From the IMG/VR virus record IMGVR_UViG_3300002052_000634, positions 1 to 64,000 of that record: a DNA stretch of 64,000 bases; one strand, given 5' to 3'. The notes below the pieces were generated by a model. It had not been told where the DNA came from, searched no databases, and worked only from the letters and a program-made list of their open reading frames with translations. Every line of letters begins with the position of its first letter. Positions within the stretch are counted from its first letter, which is position 1. Source of the DNA: a virus. This document shows positions 17,138-51,290 of this stretch, one piece after another. Both the position numbers and the translations under genes were made by a program.

Positions 17138-17162
17138 ATCTTACTTTTCCTTACTATATGGT

Positions 17163-17185
17163 AGGGGAGGGAGTTGCCCTCCCCT
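17163..17185 (-). terminator. GC-rich hairpin after the major tail gene
   Basis: AGGGGAGGG/CCCTCCCCT stem; U-tract weak. Confidence 0.5.
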
Positions 17186-29709: not shown

Positions 29710-29738
29710 TGGTTTTCCTTTATTTTTATTTTATTGGA

Positions 29739-29776
29739 TTAGGGAGAGCTATCGACCTAGTCAACGCCCTCCCTAA
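29739..29776 (-). terminator. Hairpin after the capsid gene
   Basis: TTAGGGAG..CTCCCTAA stem immediately after the stop codon. Confidence 0.45.
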
Positions 29777-29786
29777 TTTATCTATG

Positions 29787-38659: not shown

Positions 38660-38694
38660 ATTTACCTTACTTGTTAATATTCAATAAGTTACAA

Positions 38695-38722
38695 ATAAAA
38701 GCACCGCCCTAAAATGGGCGGT
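38695..38722 (-). terminator. Intrinsic terminator in the leader of the packaging operon
   Basis: ACCGCCC-ATTTTA-GGGCGGT followed by GCTTTTATTT. Confidence 0.65.
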
Positions 38723-38798: not shown

Positions 38799-38821
38799 AC
38801 TTTTACCCTCTCCTACTATAT

Positions 38822-38850
38822 ATTATATCATATAAATAGCTTGGTGTCAA
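38822..38850 (-). promoter_or_regulatory. sigma70-type promoter
   Basis: TTGACA-17-TATAAT with extended TG. Confidence 0.85.
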
Positions 38851-38964
38851 GGGTAGCGAAACAATTATTTTTTATCGTCCTCTTTAAGCATTTGTTCTTT
38901 TATTTGTCTAAAAAATTTAATAGCTTTCTTCGTCTCTTTATCTAATTTAAGATTTCGATAAAAT

Positions 38965-39630
38965 TTATTTAGAGTTCTTCTTATGTTTATTTTGCTCGCC
39001 ATGTTCTTGTTTCCTTTTCCATTTATAATATCTTTTCATAATTTCTTCGAAGCTTACAGGATAGAAATTCCAACAATCTACACCAACATTGATAGCATCG
39101 GTAAAACCAAAGGAGGTTTTTATCCGTTTAATTTGCCATGCTAAATGAACATGCCCTACTAGATTTATTTTATAGTTAGGGTCGACGTGAGCAGGATTGT
39201 GTACTATATTTATTCTTTTACCTCCATATCGAATTACTAATCTTTCGATAGGAGTTTTTACTCCATTATTTCCGTCATGATTTCCTTTACAAAACAAAAT
39301 TTTTCCATTCAATTTCTTCTCTATTTCTGTAGGTTTAATCGGAAGTCCTTCTCCTTTTTTTCCACCTGGAGAATTCTTAAAAATGAAATCGCCAACAAAA
39401 ATAACTAAATCTTCTGGTTTTACTCTTTCATTCCAACGTCTAATTAATTCTTTATTCATTTTATCTAGAGATTCGAAACTAATAGCGAATTTTCGTTGTT
39501 CTTCTTGGGATTTATTTTTATAAATTTCATATAACTCTTTATCTTCTTTAGTCATAAATTCAGTACGACCTACATATTTTAAAATATTAGCATGGTTAAA
39601 GTGAGTATCTGCTGAAAACCAAAGTTTCAT
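38965..39630 (-). CDS. Calcineurin-like metallophosphoesterase
   Basis: ADTHFNH, VGDF, KGNHD, GHVH, INVGVD. Confidence 0.9.
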   Translation of the reverse strand: MKLWFSADTHFNHANILKYVGRTEFMTKEDKELYEIYKNKSQEEQRKFAISFESLDKMNKELIRRWNERVKPEDLVIFVGDFIFKNSPGGKKGEGLPIKPTEIEKKLNGKILFCKGNHDGNNGVKTPIERLVIRYGGKRINIVHNPAHVDPNYKINLVGHVHLAWQIKRIKTSFGFTDAINVGVDCWNFYPVSFEEIMKRYYKWKRKQEHGEQNKHKKNSK

Positions 39631-40622
39631 TTCTTTCCTTTCTCATCTGCTTCTTTCAAAGGACTATCTTGTTCTAAGTGATGTAAGACTAAATTTTTTA
39701 CAATTTCTCTTCTGTCATTAGACCACTTTAAATACAAAGCTAATCTGGTCACAAATTCTACTGCTAACAATTCATGCTTTATATAATTACTTCTATCTTC
39801 TCTATCAGTTCTCACGAAAGGTTTACCAATATCATGTAACAGTCCTGCCCATCTAAGATTTATTTCTTTAGGAGTATTAAGAACTACTCTCTTTGTATGT
39901 TCCCACAAAGTAAAGTTATGATGAGGGCTGTTTTGTTCATAAGCTATTTGCAAAGATAATTCTGGAAGTATAAAATTCAATAATTTTGTTTTTGCCAAAA
40001 ATTCTAATCCTACTTCTGGATGGTCTGCCAATAGTAATTTATCGAGTTCGGCTACCCATCTTTCCTTACTAATCTGTAATATTTTATAATTCATAGAATT
40101 TACAGCATGATAAATAGAAGGATGTATTTCAAATTCTAACTGAGAAGCGAATCTAGCTACTCTAAGCATCCTCAAGGGGTCTTCTTTGAATCTCTCATTT
40201 GGCTTTCCAACACATCTAATAATTTTATCTTGAATATCTTTTCTTCCACCAAAAGGGTCAATGTATCTATCTCCTGTTTTAGCAATAGCGTTAATGGTAA
40301 AATCTCTTCTGCTTAAATCAGCAGTGATGTCTTTGACAAAAGTAACTTCAGGTTTTCTACTTCCAGATTTATATTTTTCATTTCTAAATGTAGTTATCTC
40401 AATTAGATTACCGTTTATTTTTACTCCTAAAGTCCCGAATCTTTTTCCTGTCAAATAAGGTCTTCTACCTGCTTTTCTAATAGAAGCTTCAATTTCATCT
40501 GGAGTTAAAGGAGTAGTAAAATCAAAATCTTTAGGAACGTTCCCTAAAATTTTATCTCTAACTGCTCCTCCTACCATATAGAGAGGACTAACTATTTTTT
40601 TGACTTCTTCGTATATAGTCAT
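39627..40622 (-). CDS. cca: Class II CCA tRNA nucleotidyltransferase with HD domain
   Basis: VGGAVRD, DFDF, EITTFR, RRDFTINA, EDPLRMLR, LLHDIGKP. Confidence 0.9.
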   Translation of the reverse strand: MTIYEEVKKIVSPLYMVGGAVRDKILGNVPKDFDFTTPLTPDEIEASIRKAGRRPYLTGKRFGTLGVKINGNLIEITTFRNEKYKSGSRKPEVTFVKDITADLSRRDFTINAIAKTGDRYIDPFGGRKDIQDKIIRCVGKPNERFKEDPLRMLRVARFASQLEFEIHPSIYHAVNSMNYKILQISKERWVAELDKLLLADHPEVGLEFLAKTKLLNFILPELSLQIAYEQNSPHHNFTLWEHTKRVVLNTPKEINLRWAGLLHDIGKPFVRTDREDRSNYIKHELLAVEFVTRLALYLKWSNDRREIVKNLVLHHLEQDSPLKEADEKGKK

Positions 40623-41565
40623 ATAAAATCCCTATTGTAAATTTTTCGATTTCTTCAGTTCTCGGTTTAGCAGGTAGCGTACTCGATATTGTCAAAGATT
40701 CCATTTCTCTTTCTAGTTGCTCAGAAAATTCCAAGACTTGTTCTACAGTCCATTTGCCTTCTCTAATATCTAGAAGTAATTGTCTTTCTTTCAAAGGGAA
40801 TTCTAATTTGCCAGTTTTCAATAATTCTATTCCTTCTAACATTAATCTTATTAAATGACTCGCAAATTTTACATCGAATCCATATCTATTTAACAACCCT
40901 CTCCTATTTCCTACTTTTGATATTCTTTCTTCTAAACTCTTTATAACTTTCTTAATTGGTAACGATGGAGAAAAATTTATATCTCCGATTGAAACAAACT
41001 TTACATTATTATATCCCGATTTTCTTAATTTAATAAAATGAGGACAAGTAGATAAAGTAATAACTTCTATTAGAAATTTATTTTTATCTATTTTCGAAAG
41101 ATAATTAACTCCATTAATCAAGTCAAAATAACAATCTTTCTTTATTATCATTTTGTGTTTTTGAGAAAAAGCATATCCTAAAAATTTTTGTTTTAATCCT
41201 TTATGTGGAAAAAGATGTTTAATATCTAATAATTTCTGTCCTAATTCATTTTTGAATACTATATTTTTTTCGTTTACAAATAATATCTCCAAAATATTAG
41301 GGTTATTTGAAAGAGCGAGTTGGATAAATTTTCTAAATTCGTAGAGTTTTCTATCTATAGCTTTATCAGTATTTTTTCCGTTTTCGTCTTTGGCTTTTAT
41401 AGAAAGATTAACTTCTTCACATTTTTTAAATCCCAATATATATTCTATAGGAGATAAGAAAATCCCTATATAATCTTTGTCAGAATTTTCAGTGTTAGTT
41501 CCATACAAATGAGACCCTGATATTATTTCTAAAATTTTATTTTTATCGGCAATTAAAGGATTCAT
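40588..41565 (-). CDS. Pol-beta superfamily nucleotidyltransferase (RlaP/YcgL-like)
   Basis: GSHLYGTNTENSDKDYIG, NPNILEILF, YGFDVKFASHLIRL. Confidence 0.85.
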   Translation of the reverse strand: MNPLIADKNKILEIISGSHLYGTNTENSDKDYIGIFLSPIEYILGFKKCEEVNLSIKAKDENGKNTDKAIDRKLYEFRKFIQLALSNNPNILEILFVNEKNIVFKNELGQKLLDIKHLFPHKGLKQKFLGYAFSQKHKMIIKKDCYFDLINGVNYLSKIDKNKFLIEVITLSTCPHFIKLRKSGYNNVKFVSIGDINFSPSLPIKKVIKSLEERISKVGNRRGLLNRYGFDVKFASHLIRLMLEGIELLKTGKLEFPLKERQLLLDIREGKWTVEQVLEFSEQLEREMESLTISSTLPAKPRTEEIEKFTIGILYDYIRRSQKNS

Positions 41566-41709
41566 TTATCCTTCCCCATCAACTCATCGAGTTCCTCATT
41601 ATTAGTACATTCTTCAAATACGTGAGGATAGCATTTTTGGATTCTTGCTAGTATAGTAAATGCAAGAACTAATTGCTTGAGAGTGTGTTCATATTTTTGT
41701 ATTATTTTT

Positions 41710-42105
41710 TCAAATGACATTTATCTTTTTAATCTTTCTCTTTAAATTTAAAAATAGATTAACCTCTTTAGAAGGTCTATCATAATAGTAATTATTAGAC
41801 GTTGCCACCCAATAAGGATTAATATAAAATATTTCTTTAATTTCTGCCCACGCAATCGCAGTTAAACACATAGGACAAGGTTCTCCAGAACAATATATTT
41901 TAGCTGTTGTTAAAAATTCGGTTTTTTCTTTTTTACATACTTTTCTAATAACTTGAATTTCTGCATGGGCAGTTGGGTCATGTTTTAAGGTCACTTCATT
42001 AACTGCAAAATACTGTTTACCTTTATATTCTATACAAGCCGAAAAAGGATAGCCTTTTCTATTTCTATTTGCTAATCTAATTAATTGTTTAGCTATTTTT
42101 TGCAT
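41710..42105 (-). CDS. Zn-dependent nucleoside/nucleobase deaminase (TadA/GuaD-like)
   Basis: PF, DPTAHAE, EPCPMC; likely start ATG 42105. Confidence 0.9.
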   Translation of the reverse strand: MQKIAKQLIRLANRNRKGYPFSACIEYKGKQYFAVNEVTLKHDPTAHAEIQVIRKVCKKEKTEFLTTAKIYCSGEPCPMCLTAIAWAEIKEIFYINPYWVATSNNYYYDRPSKEVNLFLNLKRKIKKINVI

Positions 42106-42106
42106 T

Positions 42107-42340
42107 TTAATCCCATTCATACCAATGTTTGTCACGTTTTTCTAAACAGCACCTTATCGCTAATTCTACATCCCACTTATAATATCCACATTCTCCATTA
42201 GATAAGATTGGGCAAGTGTTTATTCCGAATTTTTCGTTAAATACTTTTTCGGAGATATTATAAATTTTAATAATTTTAGAAATTTCTTCTTTAGTATATC
42301 CTAATGAGTCTTTAGGTTCTGGTAAATTAAGTTTTTTCAT
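42107..42340 (-). CDS. Hypothetical protein
   Basis: 77-aa ORF with RBS. Confidence 0.5.
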   Translation of the reverse strand: MKKLNLPEPKDSLGYTKEEISKIIKIYNISEKVFNEKFGINTCPILSNGECGYYKWDVELAIRCCLEKRDKHWYEWD

Positions 42341-43113: not shown

Positions 43114-43308
43114 TTATTTATTGTCAGCTACTGTAATTTCTAAATGACTATGTAAAGGAACTAAATAACCATCAGAAGCCCATTTAATAATTTCACTTAC
43201 TGGAGTATCAGGGTCAAATATTTTAGTTTCTCTCCACATATCTCCTACAGTAGTGTTTCCAGCCGAGCAGTGTTTTATAGCTATGATTTTTGGAAAAGTA
43301 TTATTCAT
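43114..43308 (-). CDS. Hypothetical protein
   Basis: 64-aa ORF with AAGGAG RBS. Confidence 0.5.
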   Translation of the reverse strand: MNNTFPKIIAIKHCSAGNTTVGDMWRETKIFDPDTPVSEIIKWASDGYLVPLHSHLEITVADNK

Positions 43309-43513
43309 ATTTCTCCTTTAGTTCGATTTCATCTACTTCTTTTACTTCTCTAATTATATTGTCTTTTGTAATTGCTATTTTAGGTAAACATGAGTCACAA
43401 CATAGAAAAACCCTATCTGTAGTGTCATTCATAGAAAATAGGAAATATTTTTCTTTAATTTTAAGCCCACAAAAATAACAATACCAATTTTTTTTATTAA
43501 ATATTATTTTCAT
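43301..43513 (-). CDS. Zn-finger protein, paralog of 44650..44820
   Basis: WYCYFCG..TDRVFLCC..C. Confidence 0.65.
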   Translation of the reverse strand: MKIIFNKKNWYCYFCGLKIKEKYFLFSMNDTTDRVFLCCDSCLPKIAITKDNIIREVKEVDEIELKEKYE

Positions 43514-43526
43514 ATTATTCTTTTTA

Positions 43527-43589
43527 TGGTGAGGGACAGTCGAGCAGGAATCCCTACTCCTTGATTATTCCATTAGGAAACTGCCCCTC
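43527..43589 (-). ncRNA. 63-nt tRNA-like RNA ending in ACCA
   Basis: GAGGGGCAGT/ACTGTCCCTC 10-bp stem, two internal hairpins, 3' ACCA; exactly intergenic. Confidence 0.55.
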
Positions 43590-43748
43590 TTATTTTTCTA
43601 ATTTCGTTAATTCATCATCAGTAATGGTACAACATACAACATTCTCATCTTCATTATAATAAACAGCATAACCTTGTCTAACTAGAGCAGTTATAAGTTG
43701 GTCTGTATAATTTTTGTCTAATATTTGGATTTTAAGTTCGTATTTCAT
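43590..43748 (-). CDS. 52-aa hypothetical protein (not in ORF track)
   Basis: MKYELKIQILDKNYTDQLITALVRQGYAVYY...; overlaps the end of the Mom-like gene. Confidence 0.5.
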   Translation of the reverse strand: MKYELKIQILDKNYTDQLITALVRQGYAVYYNEDENVVCCTITDDELTKLEK

Positions 43749-44337
43749 TTAGAATTTTCTTTCTGGTTTTTTTATTCAATATTTTTATAAATCTTTTTTT
43801 TAAAGGTTTTTTCTTTAATTCTAATCTATTGCCATAAATTTCTTTCATTTTCCCAACTGCTTGTATTCCATGTTTATCATACAAGGTTCTCGGTGAAATT
43901 CTTTTACCATCAATAAAAAATAAAGGATGACCGTCCTTTCCAATAATTCCATCAAATATCCATCCACTTGCTTTATATACCATTCCATTATGACCAGCAA
44001 AAGGGTCTGAATATGTAACAATCAAATCATAATTATATGATTTTTTGATTTTTTTTATTACTTCTGCTGTTAAACTACTCATACTCCATTTGTGGTTATC
44101 TTTACCGACCATTCTTGCTAATTCAATAACTTTTATATTTTTTTGACTGTATTTTTTTTCATAAATCCTCGACCTACAATTTGTAAATACCAAACAACCT
44201 TCTTCGTGTCCATAAGCAAATAAAATCCCTTTTACTTCTCCAAGATAATGCCATTTATTTAACATAGTATTTGCTATTTTTTTATCCAATTTGATAATTG
44301 GTGGAGTTTTCTGTAATCCGCTTAATTTGTAATTCAT
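43732..44337 (-). CDS. mom: Mom-family adenine-modifying GNAT (copy 2)
   Basis: WHYL, IELARM, IVTYSDPFAGHNGMVYKASGWIFDG, KKRFIK. Confidence 0.8.
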   Translation of the reverse strand: MNYKLSGLQKTPPIIKLDKKIANTMLNKWHYLGEVKGILFAYGHEEGCLVFTNCRSRIYEKKYSQKNIKVIELARMVGKDNHKWSMSSLTAEVIKKIKKSYNYDLIVTYSDPFAGHNGMVYKASGWIFDGIIGKDGHPLFFIDGKRISPRTLYDKHGIQAVGKMKEIYGNRLELKKKPLKKRFIKILNKKTRKKILNEIRT

Positions 44338-44338
44338 C

Positions 44339-44653
44339 TTAAATTCCCATAGAATTACATAAATCTTCTAAATATTGTTGTTGTTTTTCGTTTAGATTTA
44401 ATCTTTGTTGAACTTTATATAATCTATCTTTTTGCCAACCTGACCCTGTTCTAAGATAATAATTTTCAGCATGTCTCCATAATAGTGCTAATCTATTTAA
44501 AACATTAAATCTTGAATATTTTAATTGTATATTAATAGGAATTGGGCAATTATATTTTTCAGCTAACATCGTCAAATCATGTAATGAATAAGCTACATTA
44601 TTTTTATCCCATTCCTCTTGATGTAGACAAAATCCTTTATAATCTGCTTTCAT
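44339..44653 (-). CDS. Hypothetical protein
   Basis: 104-aa ORF, AGGAGG RBS. Confidence 0.5.
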   Translation of the reverse strand: MKADYKGFCLHQEEWDKNNVAYSLHDLTMLAEKYNCPIPINIQLKYSRFNVLNRLALLWRHAENYYLRTGSGWQKDRLYKVQQRLNLNEKQQQYLEDLCNSMGI

Positions 44654-44820
44654 TTTTCCTCCTTAACCTTATTAATAACACAATCTCCTTCTATATTTAT
44701 TTGACTTATACATTTAGAACAACATAAAAAAACTCTATCGGTACTTTTTCTCATAGACCATAAATAATAATTATTCTTTAAAATTTTTCCACATAAATAA
44801 CAATACCACTCTTTTTTCAT
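44650..44820 (-). CDS. Zn-finger protein, paralog of 43301..43513
   Basis: WYCYLCG..TDRVFLCC..C; start at ATG 44820. Confidence 0.6.
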   Translation of the reverse strand: MKKEWYCYLCGKILKNNYYLWSMRKSTDRVFLCCSKCISQINIEGDCVINKVKEEK

Positions 44821-44821
44821 A

Positions 44822-45070
44822 TTAAGCCTTTTCTGTATAACCACAATTCCAACATTTCTTATCATCTCCAAGTATATAATCTATTTCTTGTTTACATTCA
44901 GGACAAACCCATATGTTCTCTTTTCTTCCCCAATCATCTTCATCAACCATTACAATTTTAGTTCCTTTACATGCAGGACAAGTTATTGTTGAAGCACTGC
45001 TAACAGGCTCAGGATTATCTATTAATCCTCTTCCTCTACAACTAGGACATACTATTGGGTATCTTCTCAT
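44822..45070 (-). CDS. DnaJ-type zinc-finger protein
   Basis: CPSCRGRG, CPACKGTK plus two more CxxC. Confidence 0.6.
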   Translation of the reverse strand: MRRYPIVCPSCRGRGLIDNPEPVSSASTITCPACKGTKIVMVDEDDWGRKENIWVCPECKQEIDYILGDDKKCWNCGYTEKA

Positions 45071-46481: not shown

Positions 46482-46534
46482 AATTTCCTCCATGTAAACA
46501 TTACTGTATATAATAATTTGTTTCTAGTACCTAT

Positions 46535-46563
46535 ATTATATCATATAATATGTTTGGTGTCAA
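46535..46563 (-). promoter_or_regulatory. sigma70-type promoter
   Basis: TTGACA-17-TATAAT with extended TG; close match to the 38850 promoter. Confidence 0.85.
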
Positions 46564-46573
46564 GGTTTTAAAT

Positions 46574-47193
46574 CTATTTATTTTTGTTTAGTAAATCAAA
46601 ATTTATCTTATATCTTTGATTTTTTCCTTTTGGGTAAGGTAATACTTTATATCTTAAATTATGTCTAAATACTGTTTTGTCTGCCTTATTGCCAAGAAAT
46701 AAGATATACCTGTGTTTTGGAAACCAGGCTACTCTTTCTGTAAAATCTCCTACATAATGTCTAGGATGTTTTCCTCCTTTTCCTTTTATATGAGTTCTTT
46801 TTTTTTCCCACATCCAGTATATATAAAATTTAATGCTTGATATATATATCCAAAATGATTCATTTTTGTGTCACTATAACTAACAATTATTTTCGTTTTT
46901 TCAATTTGTTTTAAACATCTAGAAACAAAAAAAGAAAAGCTATTTTTAGGTAAGTTTTCTTTTATAACTAATCTATTAAGTTCTAATACGAATTTTTTAA
47001 AAGGTTCTCCGCAAATGCCTTTGCATACATTAGGACTTGCAAGTTGTCCAAAGGTACATACTCCTATCATTTCTTCTTTATCAAATAACCCAAAAGCTAC
47101 TGATATAGAAGGTATCCTTTTAGCGTAATGAATATTTAATAACCATTTTTTAGTATCTTTATATTCTATTCTTCTAACTTCATATTGTATCAT
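46574..47193 (-). CDS. mom: Mom-family adenine-modifying GNAT (copy 1), split by a -1 frameshift at GGG-A9 (ORFs 46786..47193 and 46574..46813)
   Basis: IHYAKR, FGLF..IGVCTFG, LELNRL, IVSYSD..HFGYIYQALNFIYTG; second frame has KHRYILFL..LPYPK. Confidence 0.8.
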
Positions 47194-47207
47194 ATTTTGC
47201 CTTATTT

Positions 47208-47277
47208 TGGAGCGAAGAGGTCGATTTTACGCCATCTTAACTCTGGAAGAGTTATGTTTTAATTAAACTATCTTCGC
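47208..47277 (-). tRNA. Non-canonical tRNA-Gly(UCC), 70 nt, CCA encoded
   Basis: GCGAAGA/TCTTCGC acceptor, U73, CCA; D stem GTTT/AAAC; anticodon arm TAACT-CTTCCAG-AGTTA; degenerate T arm. Confidence 0.85.
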
Positions 47278-47283
47278 AATTCT

Positions 47284-47312
47284 ATTATATCATATATTAC
47301 TGTTCGTGTCAA
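47284..47312 (-). promoter_or_regulatory. sigma70-type promoter with predicted +1 at tRNA G1
   Basis: TTGACA-17-TATAAT with extended TG; G1 is 7 nt after the -10 box. Confidence 0.85.
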
Positions 47313-47319
47313 GGGTACG

Positions 47320-48690
47320 TATCCTTTTTTTTTTTTCTACTATGTCACATCTCCACTCCGTTCCGTTCCGTCATTTCACTAATCCTTACCCTTCCAGGGG
47401 GCTACTTTGTCAGAAAAACTATACATCTTTTGTGACAACTATACCTTTACTTTCTGACCATAATACAAACTGCTAATGTTTACCCTACCTCAATGTTCAC
47501 TAAATAGTGAACTATAATAATCCAGTGAACCTTAATGTCTCATATATAATGGACATTTTGCGACAATGGACTTTTCTAAATAGGGTATTCTAACAGTTAT
47601 ATTACCCCATTTATGCTAAACGTTACCCCATTAATTACCTAACGAACTGCCGAATTCCGTACCTTGTTAGGTAAGCCCTCTTACGTAGATATAACTAAGT
47701 AACGTGGCGTATATACGTGTATATACAGGCTTATATAGGTTTATATAAGTTTATGTACGTTTCCGTATAATTTCGCTTTTAGCGTTTCGCTTAATGTGAA
47801 ATGGGTATTTAAACGTACCGCTAGGGGGCGAGTGTAGCTCTAGGAGCATTATTTAAGGCTTTTAAGGGTAGGGTGACGGTAGTAATTTTAGGAGCGTATG
47901 GAACGTAATTGTGTCATTTTTTGAGGCGATATGAACCAATTTTAGGGCGTTACAGATGCGATTAGCCGAAGGAACGGAGCGAAGTGGAATCGGGGTATTT
48001 GTTATTGTTCGGAGCGATAGCGGTCAGAAACGGTTCGTTATGGTTCGTTTTGGAACGTTATTGGCGTGAAATGGGGTGATAGTAGGGGTTTAAAGTATCA
48101 AAAAACTAGCTTTTGCTAATCTTAACCCCTATGGTCTTATATTTATAACTTATTGATATATAAAGACTTATATATATTTACTTTAGGCTATAATTTATTA
48201 TTATAACCTTTATTACTTTAAATTCCCATAAAAATATATTTTATATAGATTTGCCTATGTTTGTATATGTTTACCTAGCTTTATATACATTTTAATTATT
48301 ACCTATTTATTATTTTAACTAATTGATACATAAAACTTTATAAAGATATTTAATAACTAACTATTATTTATATTAAAGTGACTTTTACATCTACATAACT
48401 AGCTATTTATTATACTAATTACTTATTATAGATATTTAATAAATGGACATTTATTATCAGGCTTTTTTAAAGGATTAAATAAGTTAGAGGTATTATCTGA
48501 CTATTTATTTACTTAACATGAGATAGAATTATTAAAAAAGTTTAAGAAGTAGGGGTTTTATAAAGATATTTAATAAGATAGGTTATTATCTAGCTTTTTA
48601 TACTGTTAATAGCAGATATCCAAGGAATAAACTGACTTTTTATTTTTTTAATTGTAGGGATAATGTTAAGATAGACAATAGCTTAATTTA
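47320..48690. other. Non-coding divergence region with hairpins and repeats (origin or packaging/terminus candidate)
   Basis: About 1.4 kb without ORFs; several inverted repeats; C-rich to G-rich switch. Confidence 0.45.
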
Positions 48691-48694
48691 TTAT

Positions 48695-48723
48695 TTGCCT
48701 TTTCGCTTGACATAGTGTATACT
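48695..48723 (+). promoter_or_regulatory. Early promoter
   Basis: TTGCCT-17-TATACT. Confidence 0.65.
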
Positions 48724-50755: not shown

Positions 50756-50992
50756 AAAAATACCTTCTATAATGCGATTACAGAGGCGATAATTGACAAG
50801 GCATACCATAGCATAGGCAAGCGGTAAACGTGCCTATAAACGCAAATAAAAGCGATTTTTTCAAGAGGTATAGAGATATACAAGGCGATAATTGACAAGC
50901 TATATATAGGTATATAGTATATAACATAGTATAGTATATATTATATATAGGTATAGTTTAAAATAAATAAAAGGCAGATTTTTTGATAATAG

Positions 50993-51125
50993 AAAAGTTA
51001 TTAAAAGACTTTAAAAAGTGGTAAAAAAAGTTTACGGATAAAAAAGTTATTAAAAGACTTTATAAAGATGTTAAGAAAATAAAAAGGAAGATAACTTATT
51101 AAAAGACTTAATAAAGTGGTAAAAT
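50993..51125 (+). repeat. Three direct repeats with core TTATTAAAAGACTT, about 48-50 nt apart
   Basis: Copies near 50998, 51046 and 51096. Confidence 0.75.
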
Positions 51126-51290
51126 AAGAAAAATAAAAGTTAGATTTGACAATATGGCAATATGGAAAACTCCGAAGTTAATAATATGCAAAAGTCAGAA
51201 ACTCCGAGATATAATATAGAGGTATATTATAATATGGCTTTACAAAAAACTGCTGAGATTTTAAGAGTGACAAAATTTAGTTTTTGCCTA

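Follow-up and report, generated by a model that had tools for sequence, protein, structure and literature searches.

A locus in the virus record IMGVR_UViG_3300002052_000634 of IMG/VR (100,617 bp, 29.5% GC) raises the question of whether a short RNA ending in CCA, encoded near a gene of the Mom family, is a reduced tRNA, a private cofactor of the Mom protein or a structured part of the mRNA in which it lies. The first 64 kb of this record (64,000 nt) are referred to here as the window, meaning the whole stretch of DNA that was analysed. A sequence-only reading of the window had described a 'mini-tRNA' at 43527–43589 on the minus strand, downstream of the second of two Mom-like genes (mom1 and mom2), and the minus strand at these positions reads exactly as quoted there. 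Judged from its sequence, this 63-nt element is not a tRNA; it appears to be a structured part of the mRNA that lies between two cistrons and ends like a tRNA, present as an orphan sequence. The function that we tentatively prefer for it is punctuation of the operon transcript in cis.

Structure and stability of the element

The predicted fold is a three-way junction followed by an unpaired ACCA tail (Table 1). With a minimum free energy (MFE) of −31.4/−31.6 kcal/mol (RNAfold), the element is far more stable than expected from its composition (z = −5.56; 0 of 200 shuffled sequences were as stable), and the MFE structure accounts for 52% of the ensemble. Positions 1–11 pair with 49–59 (P1), 12–14 with 19–21 (P2) and 31–37 with 42–48 (P3), giving 21 pairs in all. 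Pair probabilities exceed 0.99 for P3 and for pairs 1–10 of P1, and the innermost pair of P1, U11–G49, has a probability of 0.62. The single-stranded junction J2/3 runs into AAGGAG, a Shine-Dalgarno-like word.

When 40,220 segments of 70 nt, covering the whole genome on both strands, were ranked by fold stability (mean −6.8, sd 3.9), the element came second, behind a classical terminator at 94.9 kb. Furthermore, it persisted as an independent domain when folded within 261 nt of its natural context. The antisense strand folds much more weakly (−20.3 kcal/mol, z = −1.46) because three G-U pairs turn into C-A, and this strand preference places the structure in the sense RNA of the leftward operon and indicates that it acts at the RNA level. 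The discrete structure with a 10-bp acceptor-like stem and a 3′ ACCA proposed in the sequence-only reading is thus borne out, as a strongly folded, sense-strand terminal stem of 10–11 bp. The two internal hairpins fit their proposed roles less closely: the 'D-arm-like' one is present as P2 and has 3–4 bp at most, and the 'T-stem-like' one has a 7-bp stem with a loop of 4 nt, whose origin from a T-loop with 'TTC removed' is conjecture.

The placement of the element is equally distinctive. Its position 1 is the base right after the TAA stop codon (43592–43590) of a 52-aa open reading frame (ORF), orf52, and 13 nt separate its 3′ end from the ATG (43513) of a 70-aa ORF, orf70, the 76-nt gap between the two ORFs being filled by the element. 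The position immediately after a stop codon and 142 nt downstream of mom2 had been described correctly, as had the GC-rich island (GC 0.51 against a genome mean of 0.295).

Comparison with tRNA

Four of the five features that define the tRNA family are missing from the element. ARAGORN in standard mode found 0 tRNA genes in the window or the genome, and in mitochondrial mode it picked up a reduced tRNA-Gly(UCC) near mom1 (Table 1) and missed the element. Likewise, no Rfam family reached its gathering score anywhere in the window, and a search of 43400–43720 with permissive filters (E ≤ 10) returned no tRNA signal (RF00005) and no meaningful match to another family. The same permissive search served as its own positive control at 47150–47350, where 47211–47277 scored 38.4 bits (gathering score 29, E = 4.8e-7). 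Since both ARAGORN modes and RF00005 miss the element, and RF00005 recovers the RNA beside the first Mom gene, the label 'mini-tRNA' is not supported.

The fold leads to the same view. An anticodon arm with a 7-nt loop is absent from the MFE structure, in agreement with the sequence-only reading. The weaker alternative fold put forward there, which exposes AUUCCUG and hence a UCC anticodon, finds no support: it is 13.8 kcal/mol worse (−17.8 against −31.6 kcal/mol) with a pair probability of about zero, and a second strain carries a change of C43 to U that alters the putative anticodon. A 7-nt T-loop and a D/T elbow are also absent, both loops (UAAU and GAUU) being 4 nt long, with no UUCRA and no GG in the 5′ loop. 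What the element does possess is an acceptor-type helix followed by a discriminator and CCA, namely 10–11 bp and then A-CCA, where the canonical helix has 7 bp.

Bacterial tRNA-Gly is identified by G1:C72, C2:G71, G3:C70, U73, C35 and C36, and alanine identity requires G3:U70. At the acceptor end of the element, G1:C59 and G3:C57 fit the glycine set, and A2:U58 (not C:G) and A60 (not U) do not; none of the known anticodon-independent identities appears to fit. Other structured RNAs and sites were considered and rejected: a two-piece tmRNA (ARAGORN -m negative, no tag frame), an attP or mimic of a tRNA 3′ half (the element has both acceptor strands and does not lie at an end of the record), and a hammerhead or riboswitch (the junction lengths do not fit and Rfam was negative).

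The ACCA end and other hairpins of the genome

To weigh the ACCA, GC-rich stems followed by NCCA were scanned across the whole genome. On the strand of the element CCA occurs at a frequency of 0.0102, and 4 of 24 strong stems carry CCA at an offset of 0–1, against 0.49 expected (a post hoc comparison, p about 0.002). Besides the element and the tRNA-Gly, the scan found two NCCA stems on the sense strand, one after a 413-aa (sheath-like) and one after a 321-aa (capsid-like) ORF (Table 1); both are GC-rich, lack a U-tract, stand directly after the ORF and are followed by NCCA and AU-rich sequence. A further NCCA stem is the antisense of the 94.9-kb terminator.

Two related phage contigs, L142 and L143, were found through their terminases (56% and 43% identity). 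Hairpins occur in both at the orthologous positions after the homologues of the 321-aa and 413-aa genes (56–59% protein identity); none of them carries CCA, and one is a plain terminator with a U-tract. The two hairpins of this genome are therefore probably ordinary hairpins following structural genes, and their CCA probably arose by chance. Because the orthologous hairpins lack CCA, less weight can be placed on the ACCA of the element. A distinct class of NCCA hairpins was considered and dropped for the same reason, and also since the case in G001, a relative described below, lies inside a DegT-like coding region and another is the antisense of a terminator. L142 (JAEOSD010000030.1) and L143 (CAZUJQ010000042.1) are the closest relatives by terminase, capsid and sheath, and both are contigs of metagenome-assembled genomes (MAGs), one binned with Promethearchaeota and one with Planctomycetales; at least one is likely to be a mis-binned phage contig.

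Relationship to the Mom genes

The Mom protein of phage Mu moves glycine from Gly-tRNA-Gly to the N6 of adenine (Silva et al., 2026, PMC13219725). All three glycine isoacceptors work and Gly-tRNA-Ala does not, recognition probably taking place at the acceptor end (PMC13219725). As the use of Gly-tRNA-Gly makes a private RNA for Mom a serious idea, the linkage of the element to Mom was tested.

The only IMG/VR relative with a Mom2 orthologue is G001 (L002), a sequence of 64.8 kb whose Mom2 is 86% identical at the amino acid level. Positions 747–1649 of G001 correspond to 43748–44653 of the window (81% identity), which is the only DNA that the two have in common, and the homology ends at the mom2 stop codon. 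There, mom2 is directly followed by a second Mom gene, so that the two paralogues are adjacent, and G001 has no tRNA and gives no match with R1, a covariance model built on the element. Six further Mom loci from IMG/VR and six from cultured phages (a Polaribacter, two Vibrio, a Pantoea, a Staphylococcus and an Enterococcus phage) gave no tRNA, Rfam or R1 match within 1.5–3 kb. In the window itself a separate gene, orf52, sits between mom2 and the element. A search of the PDB with Mom2 (phmmer) did not reach a Mom structure. The suggested tie between the element and Mom is thus not supported by the loci compared. The block of mom2 and an upstream 104-aa ORF is a mosaic segment shared with the otherwise almost unrelated G001.

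The RNA beside mom1 is a different matter. The reduced tRNA-Gly(UCC) was missed by standard ARAGORN and by the whole-window Rfam run. A perfect TTGACA-17-TATAAT promoter lies about 6 nt ahead of its 5′ end, and 14 nt separate its 3′ end from the mom1 ATG, a noteworthy position given that Mu Mom uses Gly-tRNA-Gly (PMC13219725).

Homologues and strain variants

Searches for homologues of the element gave none. A blastn search against 50,697 phage records (INPHARED) returned nothing; the 14-mer ACTGTCCCTCACCA had 82 matches in IMG/VR, 0 of them with the 5′ complement, and two 16-mers taken from the element had 18 and 24 matches, which proved to be chance matches when checked with R1. Applied to its own genome, R1 recovered the element and one weak plain hairpin, and it had no match in the two terminase relatives, in their whole MAGs or in 151 genomes from the phylum to which one of these belongs. 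In IMG/VR neither of the flanking ORFs (52 aa and 70 aa) has a relative, a match to L150 being spurious. For these ORFs, a metagenome scan gave one distant GC-rich relative only, which lacks the element, and a genome scan gave none.

Public runs that contain this stretch are DNA metagenomes of marine sediment and seawater, with no RNA run among them. Contigs from two of these runs represent a second strain in which the element differs at two positions: G6 is replaced by A, so that G6-U54 becomes A6-U54, and C43 by U, so that G36-C43 becomes G36-U43. Both keep the base pairs of the MFE structure. Since 45 of the 63 possible transitions are non-disruptive, such an outcome (2 of 2) is expected by chance about half the time. 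orf52 diverges in this strain at a rate similar to that of the element.

A possible role in operon punctuation

Our tentative preference is for a cis-acting punctuation or stability element that imitates the acceptor end of a tRNA. The structure, strand specificity, stability and placement of the element are observed, and from them we infer the enzymatic steps. As an RNA domain of the leftward operon transcript, the element would mark the boundary between the mom2-orf52 and orf70 messages, with its long terminal helix and unpaired ACCA imitating a tRNA acceptor end. Host enzymes of tRNA maturation could handle it like a tRNA that forms part of an mRNA, with RNase P cutting before G1, directly past the orf52 stop codon, and RNase E-type cleavage and 3′ trimming acting in the AU-rich trailer past the CCA. 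This would split the mRNA into segments and leave a structured end or fragment that resists nucleases. A processing signal had been one option of the sequence-only reading; it agrees with this preference and is held just as tentatively.

Several observations are consistent with such processing. A terminal stem with A-CCA (an unpaired RCCA) is reported to let bacterial RNase P cut substrates other than tRNA (PMC12710915). The minimal features of such a substrate, at least about 7 bp of helix with an unpaired 3′ RCCA, are present in the sequence of the element (11 bp and ACCA). In E. coli, RNase E is reported to cut 1–3 nt after the encoded CCA and RNase P to process mRNA-tRNA co-transcripts (PMC2190699, PMC2241853). 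Moreover, the element and the tRNA-Gly before mom1, in the same operon, have a common layout, in which a CCA-ended RNA is followed by 13–14 AU-rich nt and an ATG. Its branched Y-shape sets the element apart from the plain hairpins that follow the capsid-like and sheath-like genes. Genes for a CCA-adding enzyme and an RlaP nucleotidyltransferase lie about 3–4 kb downstream on the same strand. The element is not an intrinsic terminator: no U-tract follows the stem, the tail being ACCAUAAAAAGAAUAAU, and the terminator scan does not list it, whereas each of the terminator-like hairpins of this phage (at 94.9, 49.2 and 38.7 kb) has a U-rich run behind it.

A number of points weigh against this assignment. 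The element has no T-loop or elbow for the specificity domain of RNase P, and stacking of its helices gives 11+7 or 11+3 bp, in place of the 12 bp of the tRNA minihelix. A cut right after UAA would make the stop codon the last three nucleotides of the orf52 mRNA. No homologue was found, and hence neither covariation nor conservation speaks for the assignment; the two pair-keeping variants are compatible with the fold and are not evidence for it. Finally, as NCCA follows two plain hairpins here and is absent from them in relatives, the ACCA of the element may be a coincidence.

Alternative explanations

That last point leads to a reading nearly as likely as punctuation with a tRNA-like end, though itself no more than possible, in which the element is a plain mRNA stabiliser or pause hairpin that ends the mom2-orf52 segment and blocks 3′-to-5′ exonucleases, the ACCA being coincidental. 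The GC-rich hairpins without U-tracts after the capsid-like and sheath-like genes, whose positions are kept in relatives, argue for it, and their NCCA, seen here and not in the relatives, indicates that a chance CCA does occur after C-rich stems. However, the element is branched and much larger, only one fold in the genome is stronger, the genes before it are two small accessory genes and not an abundant structural gene, and CCA is in post hoc excess after the strong stems. The lack of a Shine-Dalgarno sequence before the orf70 ATG 13 nt away, the promoter-like site about 55 nt upstream (11/12 matches) and an AAGGAG half-buried in the junction and P3 would suit a translational operator or 5′ leader of orf70, a structure to which a phage protein might bind, perhaps the zinc-ribbon protein ORF70, or which might tune initiation. 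We consider this unlikely: the paralogous gene at 44650–44871 lacks such a leader, the small proteins match no RNA-binding or Mu Com-like family even at E ≤ 10, and the start codon lies outside the stable structure. Com-like control of mom was rejected on the same family searches of the neighbouring zinc-ribbon ORFs. That the element works as a site in the DNA, or terminates antisense (rightward) transcription, is highly improbable; on the plus strand the stem is indeed followed by a U-rich run, UUAUUUUUCUAAUUU, but the plus-strand fold is the weak one described above, with three G-U pairs turned into C-A, and the run is the complement of the Lys/Glu-rich end of orf52. Scarcely credible is a translational bypass like that of T4 gene 60, with take-off at the last AAA of orf52 and landing on an AAA past the element in the orf70 frame. 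An AAA does precede the stop codon, strong structure starts at the next base and an in-frame AAA lies 1 nt past the ACCA, but AAA is the commonest type of codon in this AT-rich genome and the homologues of orf70 are stand-alone proteins with the same start Met.

The remaining explanations place the function of the element in trans or deny it one. Quite unlikely, in our estimation, is a free small RNA serving as decoy or sponge for proteins that act on acceptor ends, whether host toxins attacking or extending CCA ends or the CCA-adding and RlaP enzymes of the phage. Its terminal stem and ACCA, the tRNA-repair-type cluster (metallophosphoesterase, CCA-adding enzyme with HD domain, RlaP) 3–4 kb downstream on the same strand and the lack of a canonical tRNA in this phage would be consistent with such a role; against it stand the single copy, the lack of conservation and the lack of an adjacent defence or counter-defence gene, the case being purely inferential. 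An improbable role is that of a private aminoacyl carrier for Mom2, released from the transcript, charged by an anticodon-independent synthetase and used as acyl donor for DNA modification. Mu Mom takes glycine from Gly-tRNA-Gly and probably reads the acceptor end alone (PMC13219725), mom1 has a real reduced tRNA-Gly(UCC) 14 nt upstream, and the element, with its ACCA end, lies 142 nt past mom2. On the other side, A2:U71 and A73 (in tRNA numbering) misfit the set of bacterial glycyl-tRNA synthetase (C2:G71, U73), there is no G3:U70 for alanyl-tRNA synthetase, the fold exposing UCC has almost zero probability and C43 is polymorphic; moreover, the element is absent at the Mom2 orthologue of the only relative, the 12 further Mom loci have no tRNA-like RNA nearby, and orf52 intervenes. 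A variant that we likewise hold to be quite unlikely has the free 63-nt RNA, its CCA kept by the CCA-adding enzyme of the phage, serving Mom2 as a carrier of a non-glycine or non-canonical aminoacyl group or, uncharged, as an acceptor-end mimic that gates Mom2; if this were true, the phage would have two Mom enzymes, each with a private RNA cofactor. Very improbable, lastly, is the view that the element is what remains of a degenerated tRNA gene and is functionless today. The 7-bp acceptor-like start, 2-nt spacer and 4-bp mini hairpin resemble the 5′ part of the tRNA-Gly, UCGAC(C/U) stands just before the 3′ acceptor strand in both, and there is an internal UUCC; yet a neutral relic in a genome of 29.5% GC would be unlikely to form the second most stable fold at 51% GC, and the element gives no signal with the tRNA model even at E ≤ 10.

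Neighbouring genes and other features of the genome

orf52 has no match to a Pfam or PHROG family. It looks like a real gene because its three isolated changes in the variant strain (43647, 43644 and 43707) are all at synonymous third positions. orf70 encodes a CxxC...CCxxC protein of zinc-ribbon type, likewise without a Pfam or PHROG family and with few metagenomic relatives. Contigs in ENA encode protein relatives of ORF70, namely P0001 (93% identity) and P0003 and P0004 (about 50%); the homologues of orf70 are 55–70 aa long. A paralogue of orf70 (57% identity) lies on the same strand at 44650–44871, and the two small CxxC...CCxxC proteins bracket the mom2 module. The promoter-like site inside orf52 could give the element and orf70 a transcript of their own; it is a consensus match only, and the total of promoter-like sites equals the shuffled expectation.

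Table 1. Coordinates of the element, its structural parts and the features compared with it; positions of the element itself are numbered 1–63 from its 5′ end.
Feature	Coordinates	Strand	Remarks
Structured RNA element, 63 nt	43527..43589	-	Three-way junction, then ACCA
P1 outer stem, 5′ strand, positions 1–11, GAGGGGCAGUU	43579..43589	-	Pair probabilities 0.998–1.0 for pairs 1–10
P2 small hairpin, positions 12–21, UCC-UAAU-GGA	43569..43578	-	Pair probabilities 0.93–0.99; 3–4 bp
J2/3 single-stranded junction, positions 22–30, AUAAUCAAG	43560..43568	-	Read from structure and sequence
P3 hairpin, positions 31–48, 7-bp stem, GAUU loop	43542..43559	-	Pair probabilities >0.99
P1 3′ strand, positions 49–59, GACUGUCCCUC	43531..43541	-	Predicted fold
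Unpaired 3′ tail ACCA (discriminator-like A and CCA)	43527..43530	-	Then AU-rich UAAAAAGAAUAAU, then ATG
Upstream 52-aa ORF (orf52)	43590..43748	-	TAA stop abuts position 1 of the element
Downstream 70-aa CxxC...CCxxC ORF (orf70), zinc-ribbon type	43301..43513	-	Start 13 nt past ACCA
Mom-family gene copy 2 (mom2)	43732..44337	-	Pfam PF25680, E 2e-19; phrog_1384, 3.5e-29
Promoter-like site TAGACA-16-TATAAT inside orf52	43653..43680	-	11/12 matches; ~55 nt upstream of the element
Reduced tRNA-Gly(UCC), encoded CCA, 4–5-nt D- and T-loops	47208-47277	-	RF00005, 38.4 bits, permissive filters
9-bp hairpin and ACCA	17159-17185	-	After 413-aa (sheath-like) ORF
11–12-bp hairpin and (U)CCA	29735-29777	-	After 321-aa (capsid-like) ORF

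The repair-type cluster downstream, at 38965–42135 on the minus strand, comprises a metallophosphoesterase, the CCA-adding enzyme (39627–40622), which is short at 331 aa and carries an HD domain, the RlaP nucleotidyltransferase and a deaminase of cytidine/tRNA type; the reduced tRNA-Gly is the sole tRNA of this phage. Leftward units are driven by a promoter family with three copies on the minus strand (38821–38885, 46534–46598 and 47283–47347), in which TTGACA / TG-TATAAT is perfect and the flanks are conserved; a terminator-like hairpin (about 38690–38720) stands in the 5′ leader behind the 38.8-kb copy. The stretches 47350–48100 and 48100–48700 are non-coding and lie where leftward and rightward transcription diverge. 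This region has a relatively GC-rich part with CGTTCC / CGCTCC-type repeats, then an AT-rich part with 'aataaatag...tattaaatatctttataa' units, and from its sequence may be an origin or regulatory region. In the rightward region, three tandem 49-nt repeats (73–78% identity) occupy 50989–51135 on the plus strand.

Relation to known systems

Compared with tRNA (RF00005), including the tRNA-Gly of this genome, the element has the same G1:C72-type terminal helix with an unpaired purine and CCA, a mini hairpin 2–3 nt past the seventh pair, and an AU-rich trailer with a gene start 13–14 nt on; it differs in having no anticodon arm, 7-nt T-loop or D/T elbow and a terminal helix of 10–11 bp in place of 7. 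RNase P also acts on RNAs other than tRNA, among them 4.5S RNA, the C4 RNA of phages P1 and P7 and intercistronic sites in operons. With the non-tRNA substrates of minihelix type, whose cleavage is reported to depend on RCCA in the models (PMC12710915), the element has in common a helix and an unpaired RCCA tail, and with mRNA-tRNA co-transcripts such as secG-leuU (PMC2241853, PMC2190699) it has in common the polycistronic embedding and the AU-rich sequence right past the CCA. Unlike the model substrates, the element is a branched fold and not a minihelix.

The intercistronic hairpins of stabiliser or attenuator type behind the capsid-like and sheath-like genes of the same genome resemble the element: they are GC-rich sense-strand structures that adjoin the end of an ORF and lack a U-tract. 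Those hairpins are of 9–12 bp and keep their position in relatives, whereas the element is a three-way junction of 21 pairs that follows accessory genes and has no counterpart in the relatives. A more distant parallel is offered by elements of the mascRNA/MALAT1 type, in which a tRNA-like structure within a long RNA recruits tRNA-processing enzymes that set its ends and yields a CCA-bearing by-product of about 60 nt. Unlike the element, they are eukaryotic and keep a cloverleaf and T-loop.

For a function in trans, there is a parallel in staphylococci, where a non-proteinogenic tRNA-Gly feeds FemXAB. A second CCA-ended RNA near Mom, if functional in trans, would suggest that RNA cofactors other than tRNA take part in DNA modification or counter-defence; the tests made here do not support such a link to Mom. 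What remains is a single orphan sequence, an unusually stable, branched and CCA-tailed element in a phage operon, which, if its processing were confirmed, would represent an example from a bacterial virus of mRNA processing by tRNA mimicry.

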